From Clostridia bacterium (lineage in GTDB: Bacteria; Bacillota; Clostridia; Oscillospirales; CAG-272), in assembly GCA_017517745.1 (NCBI GenBank), contig JAFWYJ010000047.1, positions 2,150-66,149 of the forward strand: a DNA stretch of 64,000 bases, read 5' to 3'. Below are positions 1,641-23,640 of the stretch, in pieces. The translations under genes were made by a program, and so were the position numbers. Every line of letters starts with the position of its first letter. Position 1 is the first letter of the stretch. The notes beneath the pieces are model-generated. The model saw nothing but the letters and a program-made list of their open reading frames with translations. It searched no databases and was not told the DNA's origin.

Positions 1641-1855
1641 ACATAAAAACAGCAAAATTTTTATGTAAAAATGATTCAAAAAATCGATGTTCAAAATACA
1701 TAAGTTCTTTCAGAGCAAATACAAGGTAATATAAGGTTTTTTGAGAGAATAAATAAGATTTTTACGGCAAAGCAGGCTTACAATATGCCGCAATTTTGTC
1801 CCAGCCAACATTCATTTGTGAGTGCAATTCACGACCCGGGCAGTCCTCACAATTC
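1641..1855 (-). repeat. Island junction repeat copy R1 (hairpins plus CCCGGGCAGTCCTCACAATTC box)
   Basis: Shares TTTTTATGTAAAAA, TTTCAGAGCA, the TTACGGCA/TGCCGCAA hairpin (1762-1769 / 1786-1793) and the box at 1835..1855 (20/21 identical to the R2 and R4 box). Confidence 0.8.
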
Positions 1856-2260
1856 TGTCAAATCCTGCACATTCCTAAAATGAGTCTGAGACACAATCGC
1901 GCACTTCTCGGCATTTCTTATACTTGCAAACAATTTTAATGCTCTATGCTTCCCTGTACAAAACTCACGACCATCTTTCTCGTATTCCGATGATAAAACA
2001 CCTTGAATACCACATGCAACCTCAGCAATGTAACTTATTATATCCAAAGTATCATTTCAAAGTATCAATTTGACACTTTGGAATCTCTATGTTTGATTTG
2101 AAACTTAGGTGCAAATCACCTAACTTTGCACTCAAATTCTCCATATTCATTTTGGATTCGTCCATACCGAGATGAAAACCGTACCAGAAATCAAATTTGG
2201 AATCGGTCTGATATGCGAGCGTTGTAGGAATACCCTCCACCCGGCAGTCTTCTGCGATTC
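1847..2260 (-). pseudogene. Decayed gene of unknown function, the most complete copy of the gene whose 3' end forms the island repeat family
   Basis: ORFs 2052..2240 and 1847..2047 become one frame if a 13-nt tandem duplication (GATACTTTGAAAT, minus strand, about 2040-2065) is removed. A further frameshift precedes a C-terminal NCEDCPGR reading across the box. The 5' end is cut by a stop just upstream of a second box copy at 2240..2260. Confidence 0.5.
2240..2260 (-). repeat. Degenerate extra copy of the 21-bp box (CCCGGCAGTCTTCTGCGATTC)
   Basis: Aligns to CCCGGGCAGTCTTCACAATTC with one deletion and three mismatches. On the minus strand it reads IAEDCR, versus NCEDCPG for the other copies. 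Confidence 0.55.
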
Positions 2261-2307
2261 TTTTAATACGACAAATCTATTGTTCGGACAAACCAATATA
2301 AACGAAA

Positions 2308-2344
2308 AGCCTGAACAGAGTACTTTTCTTGTACTGTTCAGGCT
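2308..2344 (-). terminator. Bidirectional stem-loop terminator downstream of the helicase-fusion gene
   Basis: AGCCTGAACAG..GTAC / GTACTGTTCAGGCT stem with a 2-nt bulge. A/T runs lie on both sides. Confidence 0.65.
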
Positions 2345-2356
2345 TCATTTTTGAAA

Positions 2357-5300
2357 TTATTGTAGATTCAGTTTCTTTCGGATAATTTCCAAACTTCTTT
2401 GAGTTGTATCCTCTTGCTTAAAACTTTCCACAATTTCTTCCATGATTTCAGAACTCCAATAAATCTTCAGTTTTTTCTTTGCCCTTGTAATTGCGGTATA
2501 GAAAATTCCATGAGTGATTTTTTCAGAGTTGCTTTTAGGAATAATAACTTTTACCGAATCATATTCCAAACCTTGTGCTTTGTGAATAGAAACAGCGTAT
2601 GCAAGTTGAAAAGGAATTACAGAATACATCCGATCCTCATCATTTGCATATTCAACAGAATCATCATGGGCGTACACGATAAATCTAATGCGCGTTGATT
2701 CTTCCGCTGCAGAGATAAAATCAATTCCTTCCTTCTCACAAAGATCTTTTGTTAAGTTCGTTGCAACATCAATCGTAAAAGATATATCCTTGCTTCGTTT
2801 TTCGATGTTGATAATAGTACCTTTTAGATTGTTGTAAAGGATGGAAAATCGTTGTGAGTCATTGAACAAAATGTGATCTCCAATTTTATAAGTCCATTCT
2901 TGCCATGTAACTGGTTCTCCACACGAATTGTCATTTTGAAAATAACTATTCATATTGTTCAACCCAAATTTACCATCATAATTCAAACACAAAACAACTT
3001 CGTCTTTATCCTTTTCTTCAAAAATTTTCTCACCAATTTCTTCAGAAAACGGACCATCCATAGCTAACTTTTCAACTATCAACTCGCCGCGATTTCTAAC
3101 ATCATCCCATAGACTAACAATATCCGGGTCTTTTGTTCGCCATGTATTTAATAATTCAACATTTGCTCCGTACGTATTGATTATGTCTTTTGCATAGAAA
3201 AACCAGTTTCCAAAATCAATAGATTCGATCTGATGAATGTCTCCGGCAAGCACTAAAAACGTATTCGGATTTATTTTTTTGAGGAATTCACACATCGTTC
3301 GATTATCAATGGTGCTGCACTCATCAACAAAAATAACATCATAATCGGTGAGGGTTACTTTCTTTGTAAAGCTGTCAATGCTTACGAATTCAGAGTCGGC
3401 ACCAGGATTGTCAATGCGTCTTTGTAAATTCTGTTTTGCAGTATGTGTTTTTGTGAGAAAGAGTTTCTTTTGCTTTGCCATCAAGTTCGATATATAATTA
3501 AGGAGCAGCGTTTTGCCCGTTCCGGCGGCGCCATAAATTAAAAGAATATGGGAGTTAACAAAAACATTTTGTAGAGCTACCCTCTTTAAATCATCCTCGA
3601 AAACAATACCACAGTTTCTTAGATATGTTTGATTAAACTCTTTTTGTCCGGGGTTATCAAGTTTTGAAAGTTCTAATAACTTGGATAAAATGCTTAGAGT
3701 GGTTTGTTCATATGATTCAATAGACACCAATCCATTGTTGATATTGATTTCGTATCCTTGAGCACGTTCCCAATCATCAAGGCACTTATTATACGTAATA
3801 ATTTGTTCTTCGCTTGCAATAGAATCGATATCAAAGAAAATTTCACCTGTTTTACCGATTTGACTTTGAATTTTTAAATACGGTTGAACAGTTTCAAGAT
3901 TAGCTCCTCCTGTTACATCTAAAATATTTCTAAAATTGCTTTCACCGCTTGTGTTGCTGCCAAAAAGATTAGAGATAAAAGGATTTTTTTCGAATGGGTA
4001 ACACCTGGTTGACAACCTTAAATTTGGTGACAACATCTTTCTTGCTCCAGGCCAAGGTTGCACTTTTTCGAGAGTTTCTTCTCGCAGATTGATAAGGAGA
4101 TATCTAACCGTGTTGCGACCAAATTCAAGAGAATCTTTTGAATAAGATTCTCTCAATTTTATCAGTACTTCTTTGAAATACGACGTGTTTGCATTGCAAT
4201 AAATTAAATCCACAATTTTAGAAAATGAAACTTCTTTTAAGTCAATTAGATCAAGCAAGTTGATACCAGACTCAGTTAGAAATCTCATAAGAGAATTGTA
4301 CTCGATGTAGTTTGAAGATATTGTCGTACGAATGTACAATATTTTTGCCAATTTATTAAGTGCGGACGGCTCAATTGCTACACCCCAATTAGTTATTATC
4401 TTGATTGTGGAAGCTACTCCCCACAAATCTAATTTTGCATTGATATATGCGATTTGTACCGAATAGTTAGTTGTAATGTTTTCTTTTGTATAAGCGGTGA
4501 TTCGGTTATACTTTGTTGCATATACACCAGCCAATTGCAGTGTAACCTCGTAATATCTTTCTTTCCCAACAAAGAATGGTGTCTTTTTTACAACATAAAA
4601 TTTTGAACCACTTAACTTTTGCGGAAGAATCTCTACAGATTTTATTACATCTGCAATTTGCTCATAATATTTCGTATCCGTTTTATCTATATGCAATGGG
4701 AATTTTTCTAAATTGTGTAGTACTGATATTCCATACTCTTTATAAAGGAAATCTCTAATTTGCCACAAAAAATTATAATATTTGAGCATTAATCGCTCTG
4801 ATTGTCCTTCATCCGGTTCTCGATCCTCAATATATTTAAGACCTTTTAGAAATGTAGCAAGATATTTCGTCTCCACCTTCAATAATGCTTGTTCCCAAGC
4901 TAACTGTAGGTTTGTTTGAGTATTTCCCAATCGCAACGAATTCAACAGCAAGGCAGAACGACACATATCGTATAGACGCGGTAAAATGTAATGAGAAACG
5001 TCGTCTCTGGTATATTCGGGATCATCTATAAGGTCTATGCCAGACGTTATATACTTATCACAAGCAGCAATAATCTTATCAATTTCACTTCTGCAAAGGT
5101 CTTTCTCGCTCAATTTGTTTACGAAAGAATGGCGTGCGGTGATTAATTCAAGTTTTTTGCAAAAAGAAACAATGCTATCTTCGGTATCAAAGATTTCTTC
5201 ATCCGCAGAGAAACTAATCGTAGCACTTTTCCTGTTGAAATCCAGCGAGTTAATAAAGTCTACTGACATGTACTTCCAAAACACTCTTTTTTTGCCTCGT

Positions 5301-5665
5301 TCATCTGGATTGAGCACAACAAAGAGAATTCCAGGATCTAATGTTACGCTTGTTGCAATATATGCCGGGAAAGCCAAACTGCGCAATGAATATTTAACGA
5401 TACCATCATTCTCTGTATAATCATGTGTTCCTTTAATTTGCACGTAAAAAGACTGCACAGGACGTCTGCACAAGTCGGGATTAGGGACAAGCTCAAAAAA
5501 ACCGTCTGTGTTTGGCCATTTGTCATTTTTTGAAAAATCACAATTGATTCTTCCGTTAGAATTAAGAAAAGACTCCAGTGTTGTAACAGCTGCAACATCT
5601 TCTGCTGATTGCTCAGTATGAGTTTTTACATGTACATCTATGATTTCTTTTGATTGTGATAACAT
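2357..5665 (-). CDS. Large fusion protein: N-terminal DUF4365-like (PD-(D/E)xK-type) module, about 500-aa helical middle region, C-terminal SF1 (RecD/AAA_30 + UvrD_C_2-like) helicase. Nhi-like architecture.
   Basis: 1102-aa ORF. N-terminus TDGFFELV...SFYVQIKGT resembles the D..E.K nuclease-like core. Helicase motifs: Walker A GAAGTGKT, Walker B FVDECS, GDIHQ, and C-terminal SIHKAQGLEYDSV and YTAITRAKKKL. Confidence 0.75.
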   Translation of the reverse strand: MLSQSKEIIDVHVKTHTEQSAEDVAAVTTLESFLNSNGRINCDFSKNDKWPNTDGFFELVPNPDLCRRPVQSFYVQIKGTHDYTENDGIVKYSLRSLAFPAYIATSVTLDPGILFVVLNPDERGKKRVFWKYMSVDFINSLDFNRKSATISFSADEEIFDTEDSIVSFCKKLELITARHSFVNKLSEKDLCRSEIDKIIAACDKYITSGIDLIDDPEYTRDDVSHYILPRLYDMCRSALLLNSLRLGNTQTNLQLAWEQALLKVETKYLATFLKGLKYIEDREPDEGQSERLMLKYYNFLWQIRDFLYKEYGISVLHNLEKFPLHIDKTDTKYYEQIADVIKSVEILPQKLSGSKFYVVKKTPFFVGKERYYEVTLQLAGVYATKYNRITAYTKENITTNYSVQIAYINAKLDLWGVASTIKIITNWGVAIEPSALNKLAKILYIRTTISSNYIEYNSLMRFLTESGINLLDLIDLKEVSFSKIVDLIYCNANTSYFKEVLIKLRESYSKDSLEFGRNTVRYLLINLREETLEKVQPWPGARKMLSPNLRLSTRCYPFEKNPFISNLFGSNTSGESNFRNILDVTGGANLETVQPYLKIQSQIGKTGEIFFDIDSIASEEQIITYNKCLDDWERAQGYEININNGLVSIESYEQTTLSILSKLLELSKLDNPGQKEFNQTYLRNCGIVFEDDLKRVALQNVFVNSHILLIYGAAGTGKTLLLNYISNLMAKQKKLFLTKTHTAKQNLQRRIDNPGADSEFVSIDSFTKKVTLTDYDVIFVDECSTIDNRTMCEFLKKINPNTFLVLAGDIHQIESIDFGNWFFYAKDIINTYGANVELLNTWRTKDPDIVSLWDDVRNRGELIVEKLAMDGPFSEEIGEKIFEEKDKDEVVLCLNYDGKFGLNNMNSYFQNDNSCGEPVTWQEWTYKIGDHILFNDSQRFSILYNNLKGTIINIEKRSKDISFTIDVATNLTKDLCEKEGIDFISAAEESTRIRFIVYAHDDSVEYANDEDRMYSVIPFQLAYAVSIHKAQGLEYDSVKVIIPKSNSEKITHGIFYTAITRAKKKLKIYWSSEIMEEIVESFKQEDTTQRSLEIIRKKLNLQ

Positions 5666-5777
5666 ACTTATATTTCTCCTTATCGAGCTATCAACTTAAA
5701 TATTTTGGAAATAGAAAACACTTATGATAAACGTGTTAAAAACCTTTTGTGTAAGCCCTATCACAATTAACAAACAT

Positions 5778-6860
5778 TTATTTCTTTCTAAAAGGTTTGT
5801 TTTGATATAAAACTACAGCATCTTGATCGTTGTCTATTATATCTTTTACATCACGATAAATAAGTTTCTTTTTGTGTATGGCATAATCCATTAGTGGAAC
5901 AATTTGTCCCGTTTTTTCATTAAGAATCGCGGGGGCTAAATAATATTCATTGAATTCATAATATATTTCTTTGAATAGATTATAATTTTTAAAATTATCA
6001 GTGGGATTAGCTCTTATAATTCTTGAAACATTGAGAATCATTGTTTCGTCGATAACACATCCCTGTGATTCAGCACGTTTGATTGCTTCGTCAAGGTTAG
6101 TTCCAACAACAACATAATATCCTTTCTCTTCATTAGGAACATCTCCTTCGATTAATGATATACGTATGTCATCATTTACATCATTTTTTCCAACGCTCGC
6201 AATCCAATCTGAAAATATCTTTTTAGCATACCTCTCATTGCAAAAAGGGAGTAATAATGTAGGCAAATCTGTATACCCAACACAAAAACCTGCCCCACGC
6301 CAAACCGCTTTATCCCATGTTTTTATGTCAATAAGAGATGTTACAAACAAAGTTTTTCTTTCCTTTTTAGGTAAAGGTCGTAGTTTCCCCAAAGGCGGTT
6401 TTTCACTTGTCTTGACGCCTCTTAAACGCCAATATAACTTATCAAAGCCTTTGTCGGAACTTACATTGTAATATGTAGCTCCTTGAATTGGAGTAGGAAT
6501 ATACTTTAAATCATCTTCTTCGAAAACAACGGGGATAAACCGATTATTATCAGAACCAGACATGTATAGTTTCTGATAAATAATATTGCTTTCCCATTTT
6601 ACACCTTTGCCTCCGTCTGTTTTACCCAAAACTTTCTGCTGGTAACCAGAAGAACCAATGATGATTACAAAGTCAGATTCTTCAATTTGTCTTTCCATCC
6701 ATCTTGGCCACCCTTCGGACGGAGACTCTTCGTATTGATCCAACGAAGTATCTATTCCTTCTTGTCTAAGATGATTGGAGAATTGTAAAACCTGGTCCGC
6801 AAACTCTACTGAGTCTTGCGAATAACTGATAAAAACTTTAGGATTATAGTTTTCTTCCAT
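5778..6860 (-). CDS. TIR-domain protein with about 190-aa uncharacterised C-terminal domain
   Basis: 360-aa ORF. N-terminus KVFISYSQDS...SDFVIIIGSSGY is a typical bacterial TIR/SEFIR-like beta-alpha core. Starts 18 nt after the M48 peptidase stop, with an AAAGGGA RBS. Confidence 0.7.
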   Translation of the reverse strand: MEENYNPKVFISYSQDSVEFADQVLQFSNHLRQEGIDTSLDQYEESPSEGWPRWMERQIEESDFVIIIGSSGYQQKVLGKTDGGKGVKWESNIIYQKLYMSGSDNNRFIPVVFEEDDLKYIPTPIQGATYYNVSSDKGFDKLYWRLRGVKTSEKPPLGKLRPLPKKERKTLFVTSLIDIKTWDKAVWRGAGFCVGYTDLPTLLLPFCNERYAKKIFSDWIASVGKNDVNDDIRISLIEGDVPNEEKGYYVVVGTNLDEAIKRAESQGCVIDETMILNVSRIIRANPTDNFKNYNLFKEIYYEFNEYYLAPAILNEKTGQIVPLMDYAIHKKKLIYRDVKDIIDNDQDAVVLYQNKPFRKK

Positions 6861-6878
6861 GCTATAAATGTCCCTTTC

Positions 6879-7541
6879 TCAAAGAATTTCCATTATTTTT
6901 CGGTTTGCTTTCAACCAGTTTTGTTCCAATTCAAACTTCGGAAGAACAGTTCTTACCCTCACCCAAAATTGTTTACTGTGGTTTTGGTAATCAATGTGAC
7001 TTAATTCGTGAACAACGACATAATCAATAACAGACATGGGGCACATTACTAATCTCCAAGCAAAATTCAAGGAATTATTTTGGCTACAGGAGCCCCATCT
7101 GTGCTTTGCATCTGTTATCTTTATGGAAGTTGCTTGTACTCCCATCAGCTTCGAATAGCGTTCAACCCGCTCTGAAATAATAAACAATGCTTGTTTTTTC
7201 AAATACTCAGTTAAAACATCTTTCGAATGTTCTGAATTTGGCAACTTGATTACTTTGCCATCGAAGGCGACATCTTGAGTTTCACAAAGCTCAACGATAT
7301 AATCTTCACCAACAAAAGGAACAACATCGCCCGTTGACATCGTTATTGAAGAATACTTCTCGTCAAAAGTCGCTACACTATTTATTTTTTTAGAAATCCA
7401 CCCTTGCTTTTCAGCAACAAACGAGTTGATTTCCATAGTGCTTGCAATGTGCGGAGCTCTGACGATCAATTCTCCATTTGTATTAACAACCAAAGCAATT
7501 GTTTTTCTATTGCTACGAATTATTTGTTTTGGTTCTATCAT
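6879..7541 (-). CDS. M48/YgjP-like (DUF45) zinc metallopeptidase associated with type I R-M
   Basis: HELSH zinc motif (VVHELSHI). The ATG at 7541 overlaps the hsdR TGA as ATGA. This family commonly follows hsdR. Confidence 0.8.
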   Translation of the reverse strand: MIEPKQIIRSNRKTIALVVNTNGELIVRAPHIASTMEINSFVAEKQGWISKKINSVATFDEKYSSITMSTGDVVPFVGEDYIVELCETQDVAFDGKVIKLPNSEHSKDVLTEYLKKQALFIISERVERYSKLMGVQATSIKITDAKHRWGSCSQNNSLNFAWRLVMCPMSVIDYVVVHELSHIDYQNHSKQFWVRVRTVLPKFELEQNWLKANRKIMEIL

Positions 7542-10500
7542 AATTCGTTCCTTCCATAGTGGCAATATGCCAATTCCATGATCTTTTGAGCTATATTCTT
7601 ACGATTGCTGAAAACTGACGGAATTGAACTGAACAAAGGATTTCTCAGCAGAACATTGATAATGTATGTACGCAATTGCTTTTGAAGAGAAATATTGCCC
7701 CAGAAATTGATAGCACTTGTATTCTTCTTAATGGTGCACAAAATATCGGTAACAATATCCTTGAGTTGATTGAAGTCCTGTTCGGACAAATCCTCGTATG
7801 ACTTATCTCCGAAGATCTCTTTTTTTACTAATGCAAAGAAAGGCATCTCAGTTTTAGGATCAAAGCCATATGTGTTTTCACGCTCACGTCCAAGTATAAT
7901 ATCTTCCTGACGCATTTTTTCAAGAGCTGCGTAAAGATCGTTCCAATTGTCTTTTAGAAGTTGCAATATCTTATCCAATTTATCGCTCATTCTATCAAAG
8001 AATTCGGGGTCTTTAGGCTGATTAATATTGATATACTCTCTAATTGCGTAAGTTAATTCATCACACTTTTGGCGAACAGACTTTGTGCCCTTGTCTTTTA
8101 CCCCAAATTCGGGTGACAAAATAGAAACAGGCGGTATCTTGGGGTCAACTCCGTTAACCTTCAAGTATTCTTCAACAATTGCCCTTACTTTGTCACTTGC
8201 ATCATGCATGGAAAATCGAGGATCTCGGCAACTGTTGGCTACCGATTGGCGTATAAACGACAGCATTTTGTAGTCGTTTTTGTAATCCAATGCTGCAGGA
8301 TCGGGCAAAACTCTGTCAAACAACTTTGAAATTTGCCTGAACAGTGCATTGAATTTTTCGCGCAATTCGGGATCAGCAACAAGCTCCTGAATAATCAGCG
8401 GAGCTTCATCAATTGATTTTGCTCCAATATTATCTCGTATAAATTGCTTCATAGTCAAGAAAAAAGTGTGAAGCTTATCGATATCTTCTTCTTTCTTCTG
8501 CAAGACATCCAACATTTCTTCAATGTCAGGGTCTGCATATTTTGACAAAGCGGATTTAAGATGATTGGTAACACCAATATAGTCAACCACATAACCGCAT
8601 TTTTTATTATTTCCGCAGGTTCTGTTAACTCTTGCTATAGCTTGAAGCAGATTGTGATCTCTTATCACTTGATCGAGATACATAACCTGCTCAACGGGCG
8701 CATCAAATCCGGTTAACAGCATACTTTTAACGATAATAATACCGTAATTACTGTCGTTACCGTGTTCATCTTCTTCACCGAACTGCATCTTAAATCCAGC
8801 AATGATATTATCGTTTCTCGATTCATCTGCAAACTCTTTCAAATGAGGCTTATCGTTATTTGAAGAAGATATGATACAAGCCGCTTTTAGCTTCTCCAAC
8901 AATTCAATATTCACATTGTTGGGATTGCTTTCTTTCAACTCTGCAATTTTGATTGGCAAAAGTTCATTGATAGCACAATAGTAGCGATATGCTGCCTCTC
9001 TTGAGTAAGCAACAATTTGTGCCTTGAATCCGTTAACAAAAACAGTGTTGATGTAGTGATTCAACATATCGTTTGCTTTATTACGGATAACAGCCTTGTC
9101 CTCAAGATATGCTTTCAATACTGTTTTATTCAAAAGCATTTCTTGTTCTTCCGAAGTAATCATGCCGAATATATCGGCGAATTTTTCATTCATTGCTTCG
9201 GGATCTGTAATCTCACTCTCGGTGGCTCTGCCCTCGTATTTGATTTCAACAACGACTTCATCTTCCACCGCTTGACGCATGGAATAAGTATCTATATATC
9301 CACCAAAGGTTTCTGCCGTTTTGTCGATGGGCGTTCCAGTAAATGCAACCTTGACGGAATTCGGCATGGATTTCCACATGTTAGCCGCAAGATCACTATA
9401 TTGGCTTCTATGAGCTTCGTCAATCATCAACAAAATATTGGATGATTCATTGAGAACGGGGAAGCTTGTTTCTTCGCCACGCTCTCCAAACTTATGCACC
9501 ATTGCAATGGTGATGTCAGAAGCTGTATTTTGTATCAGTTTACGAAGACCTTCACTACTTTTTGCAACATGGCAAGTGTACTTTACGCTACTACTTGTCT
9601 TATATAATTGCTTTTGCAAGTCTGTGCGGTCAAGCAGCAAAACGATTTTGTAGTTCGCAAGATCCGCAGAATTGTACATTTTTCGGATAACGAACATCAT
9701 GGTAAGCGATTTGCCGCTACCTTGTGTATGCCAAACCGTACCGCCTTTATTAAAGGTGTTTTCGCCGTTGCGTAACCGTTCAATGATCTTTCTTGCACCA
9801 CGATATTGTTGGTATCTTGCTACGATTTTTAGAGTACGACCTTCATCATCTTCTTTATAAACGGTATAGTTCTGCAAAATATCCATGAAATTGGAAGGAG
9901 AAAGCATTCCTTGAATCAGTATTTCTTGACTCGAGGGAGCTCTGCCTTCTACGATGTCAGAGAGACGATAGGGATAAGGATCTTTCCACTCGATATAGTG
10001 TGCGTGTTTTCCCGTAATTGTTGAATAGCGTGCTTCATTAAACGACGTCGATATCATGAACTGATTATAAAAGAACAGTTCGGGAACACCTTCAGCTTCA
10101 GCAGCACCGCGACGATCCTGATATCTCATCAATTGCTCGATGCCTTCATGAATCGGATCGGTAATTCCGGGGGACTTACATTCGATTACAACCAGAGGCA
10201 AACCATTAACGAACAGTACGATATCGGGAATAATATGTGCACCGATTCCAGGGATTTGAATTTTATACTGCGAAATAGCAAGATAGCTATTAAGCGTATT
10301 ATTGGGATCAAAATGATCCACATCAGAGAAATCAATAACACGCACAGGACAATTTACTTCTCCCGTTTCTTCATTGAACGCGGAAAAGCCCAGTGTTATT
10401 CTGTCAAAAACCTCAACATTGGCGTCCAATAGGTTTCTTGAAGAATACTGTTGCATTTCCATCACAAGATCATCTGCTTGTGCATCGGTGAGCCAAGGGT

Positions 10501-14538: not shown

Positions 14539-14607
14539 TTTAATTACCTCGTTTTTCGTCTATATGGCAATGGACAGAGCCTATTTGCCCCTAAATTCGC
14601 ATAAGTA

Positions 14608-15441: not shown

Positions 15442-15979
15442 TTTTATTCTTCCTTCCTGTGAGTTCTATGAAAGTAGTGTCATTGATACGGTATAGGGTA
15501 TCAGTTGATAGTTCTGATGCTTTTCGAGCAACTGATCCTTTTTTTATCAAAAATATTCGCGTTCCACTTTCCGTAAGGATATTATAGTAGTGATATCCAA
15601 ACAGAAGGAAAATAGGGTTGAAATATTGAGTTTGTGATACAAGGGTAAAAACAAACACGATGACAAAAACAAATAGCATTGTCAAATGTTCTGAGACACT
15701 AATGGAAACAAAGAAATACCCAAGGTATATTGGGAGAAAATCTCCGTCTGCCAACGACAGTTCTTTACATCCTTTAAGCGTGTCTTTTTTGAATTTTTTT
15801 GTTATAAGCAATGAAAGTGCTGATAACGCAATTGAACATCCTATCAATAATAATCCCAAAAACCACACGGGAATTATCCAAAAAGTCCATCCATTTTTTA
15901 TCACATAAATTATTCCCATCCATGATGTAGCATTAAATGCAAGTAAAAGTTTAAATATAAAATTCATTATTATCCTCAA
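15434..15979 (-). CDS. Small 4-TM membrane protein with cytosolic tail, possibly KwaA-like
   Basis: 181 aa with four hydrophobic segments, then a charged C-terminal tail. Lies 21 nt downstream of the GIY-YIG gene. Ends in TAG, overlapping the next ATG. Confidence 0.6.
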   Translation of the reverse strand: MRIIMNFIFKLLLAFNATSWMGIIYVIKNGWTFWIIPVWFLGLLLIGCSIALSALSLLITKKFKKDTLKGCKELSLADGDFLPIYLGYFFVSISVSEHLTMLFVFVIVFVFTLVSQTQYFNPIFLLFGYHYYNILTESGTRIFLIKKGSVARKASELSTDTLYRINDTTFIELTGRKNKNG

Positions 15980-16000
15980 TGCATAAGTTTGTTGAGCGCG

Positions 16001-16849
16001 TTATTTTCTATAAAGCTCGTCCAATGTTTTTCCGTCCTTGTCCTTCCATTCAACCCAACCGTTGATGCTGCCGCCCAAAACGAACATAGCTGCAGAACTT
16101 GGTGAGGTGAAGGATACCGAAACAGTCAATTTGTACTTCATGTCAACGCAAACAATATTGCCGTTAGCAAGAGCCGTTTGGCGTTGCTTTTCCATTGTTG
16201 CGGAATGACACTTACGCTTTATGTCGATTTCTGAACCTTCAAGAACCTCGAAGTTCTCACCATCGTAAACACCAAAAGCAAGAATACCGTTTCGAGTGGT
16301 ATGTAAAGTGTTAGCTTCGTTCAAGGTAACCTTGGTGTTATCCATTTTGTAACCTTGAGTTGCCATAATGAACTGAATTTCTTCGTAAACTTCCTCGATC
16401 AAAGGAAGATCATATTCATCAATCTCGTACTTGGGATTGACTGAATTTTCCACTTTGTAGCGTTTGGAATCGTGCGCCTTGCCAATGGCATAAGCTTCAA
16501 GACCGCTTATCATATCAAGGGAGAAGGTTTTATTGTCAGCCAAAAACATAATTGCCTTGTTCCAAAAGTCCTTTGAACGATTATGATCATCAAGGCGAAC
16601 AACGCCATTTCTCGTCTGACCGATATAAATCTGAGCGATCTTGTTATCGTCGTTCTCGCTGATCAGATAGTAAATGCCAGGACGATTGATGCCCGAAAGC
16701 TTCTTTGCTTCTGACAGTAGAGGACGAGGAATAACATAGGTTGTCATCGTGGAGAGATGTCTGCGAATGGATCGAATTCCATCGGGCTGACCGTTGTGAT
16801 ATATGATTTCAAGCTTTTTGCTGATTCCCATTTTTGTTTCCCCTTTCAT
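16001..16849 (-). CDS. GIY-YIG nuclease domain protein with DUF4357-like C-terminus
   Basis: GIYYL...YIGQT...R...H motif series in the N-terminal half. The C-terminal part SPSSAAMFVLGGSINGWVEWKDKDGKTLDELY resembles DUF4357. An alternative start is at 16831. Confidence 0.75.
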   Translation of the reverse strand: MKGETKMGISKKLEIIYHNGQPDGIRSIRRHLSTMTTYVIPRPLLSEAKKLSGINRPGIYYLISENDDNKIAQIYIGQTRNGVVRLDDHNRSKDFWNKAIMFLADNKTFSLDMISGLEAYAIGKAHDSKRYKVENSVNPKYEIDEYDLPLIEEVYEEIQFIMATQGYKMDNTKVTLNEANTLHTTRNGILAFGVYDGENFEVLEGSEIDIKRKCHSATMEKQRQTALANGNIVCVDMKYKLTVSVSFTSPSSAAMFVLGGSINGWVEWKDKDGKTLDELYRK

Positions 16850-16850
16850 A

Positions 16851-17933
16851 TTATATTAAAACTTCCCATTTGCCGTAGCGCTTTCCGCTTTCACGACGGA
16901 TATAATTCTTATCTTGCAGGGATTTCATCACACGTTTAACGGTGCTGAGAGATTTTCCTGTGGTATCGGCCAGCTCTTGCTGCTTGATGTTGGGGTTCTT
17001 TGCAACCAATTCCAGTACCGCCAATTCTTCCAAAGTACAGTCCAAAGTATCAAATTGAGACTTTGGAACTTCAGAAATGACACTTTGGGAATCGTTTTCC
17101 TCCACATAATCCACGTGCATATATCTGTTTTTCAACTCGTGATTGGTTTCCAAGAGGAGATTTCCGAAGAACATTTCCAAAAATTTCGTTGTGGAGTGAA
17201 TGCCTTTTTGCAAATTGTTATAGTTCGCCCTGACGAGCGCATTGCGGAAATACCACGAATTCTTTTGGAAAGCATCGTTATTTACGCGAAAGCCAAAGGT
17301 TTTCATATATTTGATCATAAAGACGGCAGTCGCTCTCGTGTTGCCCTCGCAGAAGGGATGAATCTGCCAGATGTCAGATGCGAATTTTGCGAGGTGTCTG
17401 ACGGCCGCTTCTACGGACAAAACCTCGTAGGAAAACTGCTTTTCGGTTGCAAAATCGTAGTCCAGAGTGTCACGAATGCTGTTGAAATCCGCATAGATGA
17501 CCGTATCGCCGTTCAGCACCCATTCCTTCTTGGTAATGTTGTAGGTCCTCACTTGACCTGCGTACTTGAACACACCCTCAAACAGTCTGCGGTGAATGGT
17601 CATCCACTCCGCTGGCGAGAACTGAAAGCTCTTTTCACCGAGGAGCTTTGCGATTCTTGCGGAAACAATGTCGGCTTCCTTGGTCGCGTCCTCAATTTCG
17701 GTGCGCTCGGTGCGCTGCTCATAGTAGCTTTGAATGCGCTTTTGTGCCTCGTCTATACTGATATTGCCCTCGATATGCTCCTTGGCGGTATCCAAAAGAT
17801 ATTCAGAGGTTTTAAGACCATCAACCGCTTGCAGTCCGATAGCGGTTTGCCACGCCTCACTCTTTTCAATTTTGCCGGGCTCGCCCTGTTTTATATATTC
17901 TTCAAGTTCAAATTGCCAATTTTTCTCTGACAT
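16851..17933 (-). CDS. Fic family protein with C-terminal winged-HTH
   Basis: Fic motif HPFCEGNTRAT. C-terminal LADTTGKSLSTVKRVMKSLQDKNYIRR is wHTH-like. GGAGG lies 7 nt upstream of the ATG at 17933; the ORF extends to 17945. Confidence 0.8.
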   Translation of the reverse strand: MSEKNWQFELEEYIKQGEPGKIEKSEAWQTAIGLQAVDGLKTSEYLLDTAKEHIEGNISIDEAQKRIQSYYEQRTERTEIEDATKEADIVSARIAKLLGEKSFQFSPAEWMTIHRRLFEGVFKYAGQVRTYNITKKEWVLNGDTVIYADFNSIRDTLDYDFATEKQFSYEVLSVEAAVRHLAKFASDIWQIHPFCEGNTRATAVFMIKYMKTFGFRVNNDAFQKNSWYFRNALVRANYNNLQKGIHSTTKFLEMFFGNLLLETNHELKNRYMHVDYVEENDSQSVISEVPKSQFDTLDCTLEELAVLELVAKNPNIKQQELADTTGKSLSTVKRVMKSLQDKNYIRRESGKRYGKWEVLI

Positions 17934-17946
17934 ATTTGCCTCCATA

Positions 17947-18363
17947 TTACTTTTCGTTTTTCTGCCTATAAATCTCTTTCAGATCCTCGATTGCCACTTC
18001 GGGGGCGAGGGTGTGAAAGATAAGCCAATTGCGGCTCATGGTTTCGGCAGGAGCTTGGCGGTAGATGTCCTTACTATCCTCGCCTGTGGCGAAGTGCCAG
18101 AAGCGGTAGAGGTAGCCTGCCCAATAAAGCACCTCTTTATCGTACACGGTGCCGCCTTTGGTGAGCTCTGCGTTATCGGCAATCTCCGCGAGAAGATATT
18201 CTTCGCCTGCCCATTGCATACGATTGAACTTGGAGTCAAGTCCTTTGGCAACCTCGCCTGTCATAAACGCTTTGATGAAGGTTGCGCTATCGTAACCGTT
18301 CGCACCTGACAGCTCGAAAAGTCTGCCTTGTATGTCACACATTTTCAGTTGGAGTTCGTTCAT
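17947..18363 (-). CDS. Hypothetical 138-aa protein, possibly DUF3791-like partner of the upstream DUF3990-like gene
   Basis: Clean ORF. Its stop is 1 nt from the Fic ORF and its start is 12 nt after the upstream gene. The assignment rests on gene context and a weak C-terminal resemblance only. Confidence 0.5.
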   Translation of the reverse strand: MNELQLKMCDIQGRLFELSGANGYDSATFIKAFMTGEVAKGLDSKFNRMQWAGEEYLLAEIADNAELTKGGTVYDKEVLYWAGYLYRFWHFATGEDSKDIYRQAPAETMSRNWLIFHTLAPEVAIEDLKEIYRQKNEK

Positions 18364-18375
18364 TGTGTCCTCCTA

Positions 18376-19239
18376 TTATTTCGCCTCGTCAAGTATCTCG
18401 TCGTAGAACTTTCCTTCGCGGCGGTAGTTCTTGCAAATGTCGTTTGCAAGTGTTATTCCCCTCACGCGGTTGGCTTCGCTCTCGTCCTGAAGAAATCTGC
18501 GCTCCATCATCGAAATGGGAAGCTCCCTTTCCACTCGAACGGCTGCACACGCCTTTTCGGTGGTCGCTACGTACTGCTTTCCGAGTTTAAGGGCGGAAAG
18601 ACTATTAACGAGAGCCATATCTGTGATGCCGCCGGTGAAGAAGTTATCCAGCACGTAGAACATTCTGTCGTTTGCGATACTGCCGATCACGAGATCCTTA
18701 CCTGCATCAAGCTGACTGTATTTTCCGTAGAAGTCCGTACCCTTGATCTGCTCCATTCTGCCACGGTGGTAGGCAACAAGCATTGCCCAATCGAGATCGG
18801 CCTTGATCTCAACCGAGTCGAGCTCACGCATATCGATCGACACGATGTAGAACTTGGATTTTTCGAAATCGCAGATAAGCGTCAGCGGTTGTCCGGGCTC
18901 GGTGCCCATGTAGAAGCCCTTGCCGAAGTCACACATTTCTCGGCTCTTGGGCGCGATGTCGCCAACGATACCCGACTTTGAGCCGTGGTAAAGCAGAACA
19001 CGACCTTCTTCAAGTGCGATTTCCTCGGTGGCTGTCTTGATCTTATCGAGGATCATCTGATAGACGGGAACGCCCTGCGCCTTGCAGTATTCGTAAATAG
19101 TTGCTTGCGCCAATTTCGTGGGGAGCGCACGACCGTTTTCCCAACGGTTGACCGTAGCAAATGTCACGCTCAACTTCTCGGCGAAGTCGGCTTGGCTCAG
19201 CCCCAAATATTCTCTTATACCCTTGATTAGCTTTTGCAT
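18376..19239 (-). CDS. XRE-family HTH fused to a DUF3990-like domain
   Basis: HTH LGLSQADFAEKLSVTFATVNRWENG. Downstream LLYHGSKSG...CDFGKGFYMGT matches the DUF3990 signature as remembered. GGAGG RBS precedes the ATG at 19239; the ORF track extends to 19392. Confidence 0.7.
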   Translation of the reverse strand: MQKLIKGIREYLGLSQADFAEKLSVTFATVNRWENGRALPTKLAQATIYEYCKAQGVPVYQMILDKIKTATEEIALEEGRVLLYHGSKSGIVGDIAPKSREMCDFGKGFYMGTEPGQPLTLICDFEKSKFYIVSIDMRELDSVEIKADLDWAMLVAYHRGRMEQIKGTDFYGKYSQLDAGKDLVIGSIANDRMFYVLDNFFTGGITDMALVNSLSALKLGKQYVATTEKACAAVRVERELPISMMERRFLQDESEANRVRGITLANDICKNYRREGKFYDEILDEAK

Positions 19240-19278
19240 TTTATGCCTCCAATAGATATAACAAATATCATCTCTTAT

Positions 19279-19307
19279 ATTATACCAAATGTTATATCGT
19301 TTGTCAA
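19279..19307 (-). promoter_or_regulatory. Consensus sigma-A promoter for the HTH-DUF3990 operon
   Basis: Minus strand reads TTGACA-17 nt-TATAAT (plus-strand TGTCAA at 19302-19307 and ATTATA at 19279-19284), about 40 nt upstream of the ATG at 19239. Confidence 0.7.
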
Positions 19308-19317: not shown

Positions 19318-19520
19318 AAAAAACATGGGTATTTTTTGAACAAAAAACAGCTTCAAAAAGTACCCATAATTTTGAAGGGCAAAAATCACCACAATCCCTT
19401 ACGCCGCCTTGCTTTTTTCTGCCTGCATTTCCTCAAATTACGTTAGAGAGAGGCTTCATCATAACGCAATTTCACAATGATTGTCTTTTTTCTTTCCGTC
19501 CCGGGCAGTCTTCACAATTC
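19318..19520 (-). repeat. Island junction repeat copy R2
   Basis: AAAACATGGGTATTTTT...AAAAAGTACCCAT terminator-type hairpin. Hairpin AAATTACGTTA (19435-19445) / TAACGCAATTT (19462-19472). Box CCCGGGCAGTCTTCACAATTC at 19500..19520. Confidence 0.85.
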
Positions 19521-19633: not shown

Positions 19634-19925
19634 AAAAACATGGGTATTTTCGAGTGAAAATTGGCTTTGAAAAATACGCCATGTCTCAACTGCGCAACAA
19701 TCCTCCTTTGCACATTTAAAAATGAAGAAATTTTTTATGTAAAAACCACCTTAAAATCGGGTGCTCTAATTACATAAAAAATTTCGCGGAAAAGTCTTAT
19801 TTTTCAGAGCATTCATGAGGTTATTGCTCAAAAATTACGCCAAAGAGAGCAGTCTATGTGGCGCAATTTCGCAAGTTCTCAACTTTACAAAAGCCCCCGG
19901 GTAGTCTTTGCAATTCACACAATTC
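19634..19925 (-). repeat. Island junction repeat copy R3 (long form)
   Basis: Starts AAAACATGGGTATTTT. Contains the perfect 11-bp stem TTTTTATGTAA / TTACATAAAAA, the hairpin AAATTACGCCA (19832-19842) / TGGCGCAATTT (19858-19868), and a box variant with an internal 9-bp duplication at 19896..19925. Confidence 0.8.
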
Positions 19926-20027: not shown

Positions 20028-20062
20028 GTATTATAGAAGTGAGTGCGAGGAAGGAGAAAAAG

Positions 20063-21184
20063 ATGGTTATAGGCTGTACGAAAAAACTGCTTGATTTTTT
20101 GGGAATAAAGCCACAGAAATTAACGACCGAGACCGATCCACTGTTTTCTTGGACGGCGAATCTCATCATACTCAATCGCCGCAAGACGTTGGTTGCGGTA
20201 AACAATGCGACCAAATGTTGTTTTGTCCTTCACGGTCTGACAGCAAAGAGCATTTCAAAATTGCCCGAGCTGATAAAAGACGGTATTCGCGCGGTGTTGC
20301 AAAGTGAGTATGTTGCTTCCGAGATTATAGGAAAATATCTTGACGAATGTGGGTAGGACTTAACATTTGCATCAACTGCATCTCGGTCTGACGTGGCATA
20401 TTGCAACAAGGCGTGTGAGCGTGTGGAGCGTTTTGTGAATTTGTTTGAGTCTGATAGTATATTTCAAGAGAAATATCTGCCGTGGATCAACAACGATATG
20501 ATCGCAAAAGAAGATTATTCGTTTATCTATGAAAAGTTGATTGCCACGCTTACCGAAAGATACGGCTCACCCGTGCAGTCTGCTCACGTGGCAGAGCTCG
20601 AAGTCACGCTTGATCTCCTTACTCCCTGTAAGAGAACGCTGGTCGTTCCGAGTGATCTCAATTTCTATCAGCTTCACAGGATTTTGCAAGACGCATTTGA
20701 GTGGCACGATTGTCATCTGCATCAGTTTGTTTTGAAAAAGGACAGTATGGGCAGACCAATGAAAATCATACAACCCGGATTTATGAAAAACGAAGATTGG
20801 CTTGCGCTTGACGAAAACCTTGAAAGCATCGACAGCACGACGGTTACTATTCGTGAAATTTTCGAATCACAAAATAAGATTGAATATGAATACGATTTCG
20901 GTGACGGTTGGATACATATGATCAAGCTGAAGCGTTTTATTCCCGACTGCACCACACCATATCCACACTGTACCGAGGCGATTGGTGACGCGCCTATGGA
21001 GGACAGCGGCGGACCGTATGGGTTTGACGAGAAGATGAAAATCCTGAACGATCCCGATCATCCCGAACACGAATGGATCTCGGAATGGGTGAGGAGTGCC
21101 TGGTGGCATTCCCTTGATTTTGATGCGATCAATCGCAGAATCAGGCAGGAACACCGTCGTTGCATCCCCGTTCAATACGACTAA
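20063..21184 (+). pseudogene. DUF6933-like N-terminus plus pRiA4b ORF-3-like (MM3350-like) domain, interrupted by a single in-frame TAG at 20354..20356
   Basis: ORFs 20039..20356 and 20393..21184 are in the same frame, and the 36 nt between them have no other stop. N-terminus KKLLDFLGIKP...LFSWTANLIILNRRK. C-terminus YEYDFGDGWIHMIKL. AAGGAG RBS precedes the ATG at 20063. Confidence 0.6.
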
Positions 21185-21192
21185 AACCATCA

Positions 21193-21394
21193 AAAAACAT
21201 GGGTATTTTTCGATCAAAAATCAGCTTCGAAAAGTACACATGTTTTTTCTTTTATTCGCCCTCAAAACTCCTTGTAATATAAGGACTTTCGGCGGTAGGT
21301 CTGTTTCAAATTACGCATGAGAGAGGCTTGTGCAGTGCGTAATTTCGCAATTTTCCCACGTTACATAAGCCGCCCCGGGCAGTCTTCACAATTC
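21193..21394 (-). repeat. Island junction repeat copy R4
   Basis: Terminator-type hairpin CATGGGTATTTTTCGA / TCGAAAAGTACACATG with T-runs on both strands. Hairpin AAATTACGCA (21308-21317) / TGCGTAATTT (21336-21345). Box at 21374..21394 is identical to the R2 box. Confidence 0.85.
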
Positions 21395-21448: not shown

Positions 21449-21540
21449 CGACGTCTATCATACTCGCACAAATCAAAATGAGGTCACGTTTCCGTCCTTT
21501 CGGTTGCGTGACCTTTGTGCTTTATTTGCGATAGACGTCG
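21449..21540. repeat. Nested inverted repeats upstream of the recombinase module
   Basis: CGACGTCTATC (21449-21459) pairs with GATAGACGTCG (21530-21540). These arms enclose the hairpin AGGTCACG...CGTGACCT (21481-21514). Confidence 0.7.
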
Positions 21541-21625
21541 TCGAGGGTAAGCAGCGTTACAAATCTCCTTTCCTTGCAAATAACTGTATCACGAGTTAGT
21601 AACTTATGAATTAGTTTTTATCATG

Positions 21626-21721
21626 TCCCGTTTGTCAATAGTTTTTTGCACTTTTTCAGTGAAAATGAAATGGCACAAAATAGGCAAAAAGTTGGCGGAG
21701 TTTCGCCGATGACAAACGGGA
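21626..21721. repeat. 12-bp perfect inverted repeat TCCCGTTTGTCA / TGACAAACGGGA flanking a 72-bp AT-rich spacer
   Basis: Arms at 21626..21637 and 21710..21721, read directly. Lies immediately upstream of a TATACTATAAT -10-like element. Confidence 0.7.
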
Positions 21722-21815: not shown

Positions 21816-21950
21816 ATGAAAGAACAGACACATGTAACAAGTGTTTTTAAAAACAAAACATTGACAAAGGAGGATTACACGCGTATATGGATAGAACTAA
21901 TTTCAGCATTAGAACGCAGAAAAAGTGTAAATTTTTCTCTAAGTCAATGA
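21816..21950 (+). CDS. Small 44-aa protein upstream of the serine recombinase; a role as directionality factor or regulator is speculative
   Basis: AAAGGAG RBS 7 nt before the ATG at 21816, within ORF 21726..21950. No recognisable motif. Confidence 0.35.
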   Translation: MKEQTHVTSVFKNKTLTKEDYTRIWIELISALERRKSVNFSLSQ

Positions 21951-22023
21951 CAAAATACCCCTCTGTATGTTATAATAGAGGTGGAGGAAAACAGCTTGTT
22001 CTTATCGTGGAGGAGATAAGAAC

Positions 22024-23583
22024 ATGAGAGAAAAAGTAGCAATCTATTGCAGACTGTCCGAAGAGGACAAAAACAAGCAGAACACCACCGACGATTCGGG
22101 CAGTATTCAAAACCAAAAGGCGATGCTCCGCGACTATGCCGACCGCATGGGCTGGGAGCTTTACGGCATTTACAGTGACGACGATTATGCGGGTTCGGAC
22201 CGTAACCGCCCCGAGTTCAAGCGGTTACTTGCCGACGCGCAGACAAAGAAATTTGACATTATCCTCTGCAAAACACAATCCCGTTTCACCCGTGAGCTTG
22301 AGCTTGTGGAGCGATACATACACGGTCTGTTCCCTATTTGGGGCATTCGTTTTGTCAGCATCGTGGATAACGCCGACACCGCCAACAAGGGCAACAAAAA
22401 AAGCCGTCAGATCAACGGACTTGTCAACGAGTGGTATCTGGAGGATATGTCGGACAGCATCAAATCCGCACTTGACAGCCGCCGCAAAAACGGCTTTCAT
22501 ATCGGCTCGTTTGCGCTCTACGGTTACAAGAAGGATCCCGATCTCAAAGGTCATCTGATTATCGACGAGGAAGCCGCCGCTGTGGTGCGAGAAGTGTTTA
22601 CGTTATTCTCGCAGGGCTATGGCAAAACGGCAATCGCTCGGATGCTCAACGACCGAGGGATACCCAATCCCACCGAGTACAAACGAATGCAGGGGCTTCG
22701 CTTTAGTCTGCCACCAAGCAAGAACAGCACACTGTGGAAGTATTTCGCCATCTCGGATATGCTGATCAACGAGACCTATATCGGCAATTTGGTGCAAGGC
22801 AAGTATGAGAGCATTTCATACAAGACTTCAATCAACCGCCCACGCCCCAAGGAGCAATGGTTCAGGGTGGAAGGCACACACGAGCCGATCATTGACCGCG
22901 CCTTGTGGGATAGGGTACAGAAAATGATCGCCGAGCGAGCCAAGCCGTTTAAAGTCGGTACGATCGGACTATTTGCCAAAAAGGTACGGTGCGCATTCTG
23001 CGGATACGTGATGCGCTCGTCAAAGTCGGGCGGCAAACACTTTCTGCAATGCCCCAACCGACACTACGCCAAAGGTGCTTGCGAGGGTGCGTTTATTTCG
23101 GTGGATAGGCTTGAACGAATGGTCATTGCGGAGCTTCGACGACTCAATGCAGAATATCTTAACATGGATGAATTAGAGTGTAAGGTACAATTTAACGCCG
23201 AACTCCTCACGCAGAAGCAAGAAATCGAAGCCGAAATTTCGACCTATCAAGGAAAGATCAATCAATTCTCCAAGGGTGTGCGCGACCTTTATCTTGACAA
23301 GGTGAAGGGCTTGATTTGTGAGGCAGATTTCATCGAGCTGTCAAAGGACTTCACCTCACAAAAAGAACGCCTTGAAGCGCAGGTGCTGGAATGTCAAAAG
23401 CGAATTGCCGAGATTGAAATCAAAATTGCCGTTGGTGACAACCGCCGTGAATTGATTGAAAAATACGTCAAAGTAGAGCATCTGACGCGGGAAATGGTGG
23501 AGATTTTGATTGACAAAATCATGGTCGGAAAGCGTATTCCGGGGACACGAAATGTGCCCATCGAAATTCACTGGAATTTCTAA
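22024..23583 (+). CDS. Large serine recombinase (resolvase catalytic domain + recombinase domain + zinc ribbon + coiled coil)
   Basis: 519 aa. N-terminus VAIYCRLSEED carries the catalytic Ser region. Contains DIILCKTQSRFTR, the Cys cluster CAFCGY...LQCPNRHY...C, and a C-terminal coiled coil. Confidence 0.9.
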   Translation: MREKVAIYCRLSEEDKNKQNTTDDSGSIQNQKAMLRDYADRMGWELYGIYSDDDYAGSDRNRPEFKRLLADAQTKKFDIILCKTQSRFTRELELVERYIHGLFPIWGIRFVSIVDNADTANKGNKKSRQINGLVNEWYLEDMSDSIKSALDSRRKNGFHIGSFALYGYKKDPDLKGHLIIDEEAAAVVREVFTLFSQGYGKTAIARMLNDRGIPNPTEYKRMQGLRFSLPPSKNSTLWKYFAISDMLINETYIGNLVQGKYESISYKTSINRPRPKEQWFRVEGTHEPIIDRALWDRVQKMIAERAKPFKVGTIGLFAKKVRCAFCGYVMRSSKSGGKHFLQCPNRHYAKGACEGAFISVDRLERMVIAELRRLNAEYLNMDELECKVQFNAELLTQKQEIEAEISTYQGKINQFSKGVRDLYLDKVKGLICEADFIELSKDFTSQKERLEAQVLECQKRIAEIEIKIAVGDNRRELIEKYVKVEHLTREMVEILIDKIMVGKRIPGTRNVPIEIHWNF

Positions 23584-23584
23584 A

Positions 23585-23640
23585 AAATCGTCAACTTCAA
23601 AAGCACCGAAAACCCTTGAAATATAAGGATTTTTCGCGTT
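23585..23640 (-). repeat. Truncated island junction repeat copy R5
   Basis: AAAAATCGTCAACTTCAAAAGCACC...CTTGAAATATAAGGATTTTTCGCG aligns with the R1 segment at 1680-1748 and the R4 segment at 21210-21295. Similarity stops at the junction with the catalase fragment. Confidence 0.6.

Follow-up and report, generated by a model that had tools for sequence, protein, structure and literature searches.

Box-and-hairpin modules under purifying selection at a single locus of a defence-bearing element that splits cotJC in Clostridia

The stretch analysed here (the window) comprises 64,000 nt of contig JAFWYJ010000047.1 from a Clostridia bacterium (GCA_017517745.1) and carries the right-hand part of a mobile element that interrupts the spore-coat gene cotJC and is loaded with defence genes. 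Within this element lie repeated units (R1-R4, plus the degenerate box R0) built around a 21-nt box and one or two short hairpins, H1 and H3. We show that these units are a lineage-restricted family of composite non-coding modules confined to one locus. Purifying selection acts on the box, H1 and H3 but not on the spacers, and compensatory changes preserve H1, which folds on the minus strand. The units are neither attachment sites of the element's recombinase nor breakpoints of cargo turnover. We tentatively read them as locally duplicated cis-acting RNA 3'-end or insulator modules that would carry a recognition box. The motif is new, narrowly distributed and non-coding, and the mobile element that carries it is of a known type.

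On the minus strand, the window holds two exact matches to the box (GAATTGTGAAGACTGCCCGGG), in R2 and R4, one with a single mismatch in R1 and one with three mismatches in R3, while dinucleotide shuffles give an expectation of 0 (coordinates in Table 1). The 13-nt core of the box, ARGACTRCCSRGG, matched seven times against 0.43 expected, and six of the seven matches lie on the minus strand of the island, including 2239-2251 in the degenerate copy R0 and 1588-1600 in a sixth remnant that had previously been overlooked. A covariance model of box plus H1 recovered R4, R2, R3 and R1 at 113-73 bits and R0 weakly at 10.8 bits, and found nothing convincing in the remaining ~40 kb of the window. These results bear out a preliminary description of the stretch that had placed R1-R4 in one orientation, reported the box as identical in R2 and R4, altered at one position in R1 and more diverged in R3, and listed an extra box at 2240-2260, now recognized as R0.

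Table 1. Units, genes and other features of the element and its surroundings (window coordinates unless a locus is named).
Feature	Coordinates	Strand	Remarks
R4	21193-21394	-	box 21374-21394; H1 ~21307-21346; small hairpin TCCTT-N7-AAGGA; predicted bidirectional H3 21193-21250
R3	19634-19916	-	diverged box 19896-19916; H1 ~19832-19871; AT-rich hairpins ~19720-19790; H3 19634-19690
R2	19318-19520	-	box 19500-19520; H1 ~19434-19473; H3 19318-19373
R1	1641-1855	-	box 1835-1855; H1 ~1758-1797; hairpins TTATGTA...TACATAA and ACATAAAAA...TTTTTATGT in place of H3
R0	2229-2266	-	degenerate box alone, GAATCGCAGAAGACTGCCGGG
Sixth box remnant	1575-1608	-	AATTGAGAGAAAAAGACTGCC fused to GC hairpin CCGAGGcggtcgCCCTCGG
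'R5'	23585-23640	-	small hairpin AAAACCCTTGAAATATAAGGATTTTT; between recombinase stop and attR
FAD oxidoreductase/Rieske gene	2-1363	+	element gene, not chromosomal flank; followed by palindromic terminator 1425-1470
Defence array	2357-19242	-	HTH-DUF3990 + 138 aa (PDC-M42/M13-like); Fic-wHTH (PDC-S72); GIY-YIG/DUF4357 (PDC-S14); Kiwa KwaA/KwaB; type I restriction-modification (HsdM, HsdS, HsdR); YgjP peptidase; bSEFIR/TIR; SF1 helicase (PDC-S53)
HTH-DUF3990 operon promoter	19279-19307	-	consensus TTGACA-17-TATAAT, 12/12
DUF6933/pRiA4b-ORF3 gene (PDC-S63-like)	20039-21184	+	split: 20039-20356 and 20393-21184
ATPase_2/DUF234 (PDC-S27) remnant	21522-21650	-	promoter-like TTGACA 21633-21638, leader, ribosome-binding site, last 39 nt
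Small open reading frame, 44 aa	21816-21950	+	upstream of recombinase; conserved
Large serine recombinase	22024-23583	+	Resolvase + Recombinase + Zn ribbon + DUF4368; right end of element
cotJC 3' fragment	23654-23888	+	Mn-catalase family spore-coat gene; attR crossover region ~23640-23680
25-nt palindrome, window	2057-2081; 17042-17066		in R0-R1 spacer; in frame in Fic-wHTH gene, linker between two domains
25-nt palindrome, other loci	L062 6310; L065 6796; L067 2767; L069 4000; L070 1948 and 3434		
37-bp palindromic terminator	1425-1470; L001 772-808 and 2238-2282; L013 5002-5047; L039 4838-4880		
GC-rich terminator hairpins	25093-25137; 25999-26043; 27459-27503; 30222-30266		

The unit is a mosaic of box, H1 and a 3' end module, for which R2-R4 have H3 while R1 and R3 have AT-rich hairpins. 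Read on the minus strand, R2 and R4 consist of box, spacer, H1, a variable middle and the T-run hairpin H3; R3 has the same set of parts with an inserted AT-rich hairpin block of the R1 type; and R1 runs from the box through a longer spacer and H1 to AT-rich hairpins (TTATGTA...TACATAA), and lacks H3 (ATGGGTAC...GTACCCAT). The three-part composition earlier ascribed to every full copy, with a strong terminator hairpin as its last part, thus stands for R2, R4 and, with its extra block, R3, but not for R1. H1 has a 10-11 bp stem and a C/U-rich loop and lies ~27 nt downstream of the box, a spacing that is nearly fixed in R2-R4 (26-28 nt). The pyrimidine-rich loop is likewise kept in R2-R4, and that of R1 is different. 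H3, an A-run, a 16-bp stem and a T-run (TGTTTTTT), was seen in 16 distinct copies with folding energies of -12 to -29 kcal/mol. With a stable stem-loop followed by a U-run, it qualifies as a predicted intrinsic (Rho-independent) terminator, likely to act in both directions; a simple terminator scanner left it unlisted because its stem is AT-rich.

The stretch called R5 does not belong to this family. It had been taken for a truncated copy, but all it has in common with R4 is the small hairpin CCTT-N7-AAGG together with a weakly H3-like stretch. It is most closely related to the sequences just inside attL of two related loci, L058 and L061 (90-92% identity over 39 nt); R5 and these relatives all bear a small hairpin AAAACCCTTGAAATATAAGG..TTTT, and the middle hairpin of R4 is of a like kind. 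Since the recombinase stop codon directly adjoins attR in L042-L047, with no R5-like stretch between them, R5 is better described as an insertion within the element than as a truncated box-H1-H3 unit. At the same position L039 carries ~190 nt of tandem-like TGTGAAATAAT/ATTTCACA repeats (11560-11750), and the insert of L041 differs from both these repeats and R5. Nor do units sit at every module boundary, as had been proposed: the gene boundaries inside the 17-kb defence array are all without one.

To map the distribution of the units, we scanned one genome from each of 185,579 species and a metagenome collection with a degenerate form of the box. The genome scan gave 24 matching loci, against ~35 expected by chance on our own estimate. 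Matches in Proteobacteria, Acidobacteria and similar groups lacked the hairpin and were set aside as chance. True units were found at 11 loci from 9 metagenome-assembled genomes (MAGs) assigned to Clostridia, Oscillospiraceae or 'Eubacteriales', often with 2-3 units per locus, and the metagenome collection yielded one further real contig. Viral contigs scanned with the box gave none, and neither did a blastn search of plasmids and phages with the R3-R2 block. Every true copy is syntenic with the window, and the order R4-[pRiA4b]-R3-R2 is kept; at locus L019 a further, diverged unit stands between R3 and R2. Because all true copies stand at this one syntenic locus, the family is neither dispersed nor widespread, and the concern that the units might be a generic repeat scattered through the genome was not borne out. 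Repetitive extragenic palindromes and bacterial interspersed mosaic elements are likewise structured repeats downstream of genes, but they are dispersed in many copies, whereas the units number 4-6 copies at a single locus in ~10 related genomes.

An alignment of the orthologous R4-to-R2 region from eight relatives, at 83-93% nucleotide identity, showed which parts of the unit are conserved. The fraction of invariant columns was 0.62-0.95 in the box, 0.74-0.88 in H1 and 0.84-0.88 in H3, compared to 0.25-0.73 in the spacers between box and H1 and 0.40-0.73 in the middle segments. In the pRiA4b gene of the same alignment it was 0.76-0.88 for codon positions 1-2, compared with 0.45-0.49 for position 3. 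The three blocks are therefore as invariant as codon positions 1-2 and the spacers resemble third positions, demonstrating that the blocks are under purifying selection while the rest drifts. Among 26 distinct copies of H1, paralogues and orthologues together, 95.8% of cells were paired and five of the ten pairs had changed on both sides. The covariation seen was matched by 0 of 500 shuffles, and slid controls were paired at only 25-48%. H3 showed one compensatory pair. The view that the units are neutral, functionless relics of local duplications could draw on their confinement to a single locus and on truncated or degenerate copies such as R0, the 1575-1608 remnant and the extra unit of L019, but the block conservation and the compensatory substitutions in H1 make it highly improbable.

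The same covariation bears on the strand. One central H1 pair (72/99) is GU in 12 copies, AU in 9 and GC in 5, so that about half of the copies would show an A-C mismatch on the opposite strand. The helix is therefore intact on the minus strand only, which speaks for a single strand, either RNA or single-stranded DNA, that folds with the same sense as the defence genes. This asymmetry argues against a palindrome bound by protein as double-stranded DNA, as do the compensatory changes in the inner stem. It is accordingly unlikely that divergent defence promoters are controlled from the duplex, with box, H1 and H3 serving as operators or architectural sites. That idea does account for conservation at the level of sequence, beyond structure, for the near-constant spacing from box to H1 and for the position of R2, which abuts a promoter; in addition, the homologous promoter at non-cotJC loci (L063, ~4800-4930) is preceded by the palindrome TGGGATATCCCA in four copies, and the half-site of this palindrome is similar to the outer arms of H3. 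However, TGGGATATCCCA is absent from the island, and the helix-turn-helix (HTH) domain of the HTH-DUF3990 protein is nearly identical in unit-free loci that retain only the palindrome of the shared promoter. H3 is for both reasons an unlikely operator of this HTH, and the near-identity without units points instead to the GATATAACA/TGTTATATC palindrome in the shared promoter module as its likely operator.

No known family covers the units. Rfam 15 assigned none to them at gathering or permissive thresholds, the best sub-threshold scores being far below gathering; its only matches at threshold in the window were one tRNA and an L10 leader. The box was also considered as the 3' end of an open reading frame (ORF; '...EL*' or '...NCEDCPG'), but the frame is not kept, with a stop in L005 and L013 in one version and loss of the stop in R3 in the other, and Pfam gave no match on these ORF fragments. 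Resemblances to dif/Xer sites, to CodY, cre and Spo0A boxes, and to the ends of IS200/IS605 or of miniature inverted-repeat transposable elements were partial AT-rich matches judged by eye and were rejected; by eye, the units show no inverted terminal repeats and no 11-6-11 architecture.

We then placed the units within their host element. Directly 3' of the large serine recombinase gene, 23654-23888 encodes the C-terminal third of a CotJC/Mn-catalase protein. Sister loci, defined as contigs with recombinases 76-91% identical to that of the window, all have this cotJC fragment after the recombinase, with the recombinase stop 17-190 nt away, and in four of them (L039, L042, L058 and L061) both parts of the split gene can be seen, while the window shows the 3' part alone. 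L039 gives the full picture, with CotJA, CotJB and a 140-aa CotJC fragment on one side, a 99-aa CotJC fragment on the other, and in between CBAH, Mn-catalase, FAD oxidoreductase, DUF6933-pRiA4b, ATPase/DUF234, the small ORF and the recombinase. From the 3' fragment and the sister contigs, we conclude that the window holds the right-hand ~24 kb of a cotJC-intervening element. The attL and attR cores lie in cotJC (...GCGGCAGAT... / ...GCAGCAGAGCA...), have a common stretch ...GC(G/A)GCAGA... within 'AA(D/E)' codons and bear no similarity to the box. Since the FAD oxidoreductase gene to the left of R1 belongs to the element and the true sites are in cotJC, R1 and R5 do not mark the ends of the island, contrary to the earlier proposal. 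The palindromic terminator at 1425-1470 was also weighed as an attachment site and dismissed, as it is a recurrent terminator and the true site lies in cotJC.

Gene content between the ends is variable. The FAD oxidoreductase gene adjoins the small ORF and recombinase in L042 and L058, where defence cargo is absent; L061 is a compact element whose cargo is limited to HTH-DUF3990, Fic and pRiA4b; and L043-L048 carry other cargo (type I restriction-modification, GmrSD, Fic). The defence cargo occupies a hotspot between the FAD oxidoreductase gene and the small ORF plus recombinase. The 44-aa product of the small ORF, which has a good ribosome-binding site and is conserved in L042 and L058 (...TSVFK...YT..W.E.I..LE.R...), is a candidate recombination directionality factor. 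Members of the recombinase family are 75-98% identical, fall into >100 protein clusters and are very common in gut Oscillospiraceae/Ruminococcaceae assemblies. G+C content is 34-45% over ~1.4-25 kb, with values as high as 52% at 18-19 kb and in the recombinase gene, and is mostly >50% in the flanking chromosome.

Elements that intervene in sporulation genes are known from skin in sigK, SPbeta in spsM, gin in gerE and a skin-like element in cotJC of Laceyella sacchari (PMC5595907, PMC4191935, bioRxiv 10.1101/2022.02.25.481979). The present element resembles them in having a large serine recombinase at one end, preceded by a small ORF, and in splitting a mother-cell sporulation gene in the same orientation; as in gin, the cargo is non-phage and includes restriction-modification genes (PMC4191935, PMC5595907). 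It differs in that its cargo is a large and variable defence island; its left end lies outside the window. Internal repeat modules of the kind seen here are undescribed in the cited literature (PMC5595907, PMC4191935, bioRxiv 10.1101/2022.02.25.481979).

Two explanations had been offered earlier for the repeats, tandem accretion of elements at one target and exchange of cargo at the repeats. Comparison of relatives showed a conserved right framework, R4-pRiA4b-R3-R2-HTH/DUF3990-138aa, and a conserved left framework, terminator-R0-R1-FAD oxidoreductase, with differing cargo between them. The expectation that cargo varies between conserved repeats therefore holds at the level of the frameworks, but the breakpoints fall at gene ends and not at units. 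Homology to the window ends at 17944 in L005, directly after the 138-aa gene, at 16858 in L019 and at 16001 in L022, all gene boundaries 1.3-3.3 kb inside R2, and on the left side it resumes near the last cargo terminator and R0, at ~2340-2250. The three indels that could be resolved are all illegitimate deletions at non-equivalent positions. First, an internal deletion of ~1355 bp in the window has removed most of an ATPase_2/DUF234 gene that is intact in L005, L013 and L039, leaving its promoter, ribosome-binding site and final 39 nt, with no unit at the breakpoints. Second, where L039 has lost the whole array, one arm of the 1425-1470 terminator is fused to the HTH-DUF3990 promoter, of which the first half is left. 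Third, the single R3/R2 unit of L039 is a fusion of R3, 20 nt past H1, to the middle of the H1 of R2.

Where cargo is exchanged elsewhere, units were not found. Sister elements with other defence cargo have none, the variable cargo of relatives yielded none with the covariance model, and none accompany pRiA4b homologues of 57-70% protein identity in other elements or the ten loci whose HTH-DUF3990 is 85% identical, so that the units are not obligatory companions of pRiA4b or HTH-DUF3990. No analogous repeat family was found in the sister element with the 76% identical recombinase. As the preliminary description had said, neither an integron integrase nor a tyrosine recombinase is present among the Pfam-scanned ORFs: the 20 contained no phage-integrase, IntI or other tyrosine recombinase domain, and the serine recombinase stands alone. 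These observations support neither tandem accretion nor exchange at the repeats.

It is accordingly very unlikely that the units are site-specific recombination junctions of the attC, pdif or staphylococcal cassette chromosome (SCC) type, at which the serine recombinase or an enzyme encoded elsewhere exchanges defence cassettes, even though the copies are direct and strand-specific, the compensatory hairpin with its invariant edge box is reminiscent of attC, variable cargo lies between R2 and R0/R1, and L019 has its extra unit between R3 and R2. Like integron attC sites, the units are direct copies 3' of gene modules and fold strand-specifically with compensatory changes beside a short invariant edge box. 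However, IntI is absent, the modules have their own promoters and mixed orientation, and no presence/absence polymorphism of cassettes is bounded by units; moreover, attC is a single imperfect palindrome (R''-L''...L'-R'), whereas the unit has separate short hairpins (H1 of 10-11 bp, H3 of ~16 bp) with unstructured, unconserved spacers. Composite SCC islands likewise combine a large serine recombinase with direct repeats between modules, but those repeats are core sites of the recombinase itself, located at its target gene, while the core here is in cotJC and unrelated to the box.

The positions of the units are what lead us to the reading as cis-acting 3'-end or insulator modules. In L005, L013 and L039, R4 follows the ATPase/DUF234 gene as its 3' untranslated end, and the H3 of R4 lies immediately against the stop codon of pRiA4b, which is convergent. 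Only ~10 nt separate the end of R2 from the -35 element of the HTH-DUF3990 promoter, and in L061 an R1-like unit takes the same place. R1 and R0 come after the array's last gene, R0 lying ~80 nt past the terminator of the last cargo gene, with a fuller version in L012. The units would act in cis on transcripts, halting read-through between convergent and tandem defence modules, and the box with H1 might form a sequence-specific recognition site for a protein or RNA partner; the copies may have arisen by local duplication within the element. Boundary sequences and moron terminators of temperate phages, and repeated intergenic terminators, are comparable in being short conserved non-coding terminator modules between independently transcribed accessory genes of a mosaic element, but the units add an invariant box and a covarying hairpin under selection, and no mosaic joint falls at them.

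Several observations weigh against this interpretation. R3 and R2 follow no minus-strand gene. The whole-unit folding energy is unexceptional (z = -2.1 for R4, -0.4 for R2), and folding of single-stranded DNA is here indistinguishable from that of RNA. No conserved promoter was found upstream of R4, where L039 has a 20-nt deletion and L005 and L013 differ. Lastly, a sequence-specific partner must be assumed, since a simple terminator does not need such conservation of the box, the outer stem of H1 and the 3' arm of H3.

The missing promoter counts also against a different RNA model, in which the units are sibling trans-acting small RNAs whose C/U-rich H1 loop, GCCUCUCUC, is anti-Shine-Dalgarno-like and would pair with the ribosome-binding sites of mRNAs. 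Multiple tandem copies that each end in an intrinsic terminator, the conserved pyrimidine-rich loop of R2-R4 and strand-specific folding would fit it. But no conserved promoter precedes the box, and the upstream region of R4 is deleted or diverged in relatives; the loop of R1 differs; complementarity of box and loop to sequences of the element does not exceed that of shuffled controls; and a 9-nt match to the recombinase start does not go beyond chance, nor is it conserved in L019. We consider small RNAs of this kind improbable. More far-reaching, and given only a slim chance, is the proposal that the units are strand-specifically folded cis junction signals of a defence-gene cassette platform of Clostridia, integron-like without an integron integrase and housed in sporulation-gene intervening elements; a less radical variant would see in them a new class of structured RNA that regulates or insulates defence modules. 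The 25-nt palindromes of related arrays anchored by HTH-DUF3990 might belong to the same platform.

If the units are functional RNA 3'-end or insulator modules, they would show how independently acquired and potentially toxic defence genes stay transcriptionally separate in a compact mobile element, and Clostridial non-coding RNA would gain a structured motif not described before. The context outweighs the units, in that the recombinase family marks cotJC-splitting elements with a defence-gene hotspot. These elements, and the HTH-DUF3990/138-aa pair in at least two kinds of locus, offer handles on new defence systems in uncultured gut spore-formers.

Genes were annotated with PADLOC and with Pfam, the latter applied to 20 ORFs of 80 aa or more in the interval 1-27.4 kb. 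By its annotated content, the minus-strand array is a genuine defence island (Table 1). Its module of promoter, HTH-DUF3990 and 138-aa gene (19308-17954, minus strand) recurs at 77% nucleotide identity in another type of locus, L062-L071, and homology to these unrelated loci begins at the promoter, just outside R2. At the ten loci L062-L071, one identical HTH-DUF3990 protein, 85% identical to that of the window, heads at least five different defence arrays. The HTH-DUF3990/138-aa pair looks like a conserved anchor of a defence hotspot, the variable part beginning right after the 138-aa gene. The pRiA4b gene of the window is split into ORFs of 105 and 263 aa, where relatives have a single ORF of ~370 aa, and is probably a frameshift or nonsense pseudogene. 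In another recombinase-bearing element (L054-L057), DUF6788, DUF3990, a 78-aa ORF, DUF3791 and DUF6933-pRiA4b form one operon, which suggests that DUF3990 and pRiA4b proteins work together.

Other repeats and terminators were observed nearby. A 25-nt palindrome (CCAAAGTGYCAANTTGRCACTTTGG) whose arms show compensatory changes forms a second repeat family, which lies in the gaps between defence cassettes of related arrays. The R0-R1 spacer, which holds one copy, was considered as a remnant of the 3' end of the Fic-wHTH gene and rejected, only a 41-nt palindrome being common to the two. A near-perfect 37-bp palindromic terminator (TTCGGCTAATTT...AAATTAGCCGAA) recurs in related elements and flanks the FAD oxidoreductase gene on both sides in L001. 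In L061, a ~100-nt repeat (AAAAATGCTTGCTTGCA...GGGCG.AGCCC.AAGG.TTGCG) precedes the Fic gene (7020-7125) and the recombinase gene (9830-9935). To the right of the element, translated pieces on the plus strand at ~24700-25060 resemble, by eye, an Rhs/YD-repeat protein interrupted by stops (...YKYNDEGIRIGK..., ...YYFYKNLQGDVIAVTDD...) and probably represent the debris of a pseudogene in the interval that separates the cotJC fragment from the gene after it. A family of GC-rich terminator hairpins that are nearly identical to one another (GCTCACGCCTCGGC...GCCTTGGCGTGAGC) stands between the chromosomal genes that follow.

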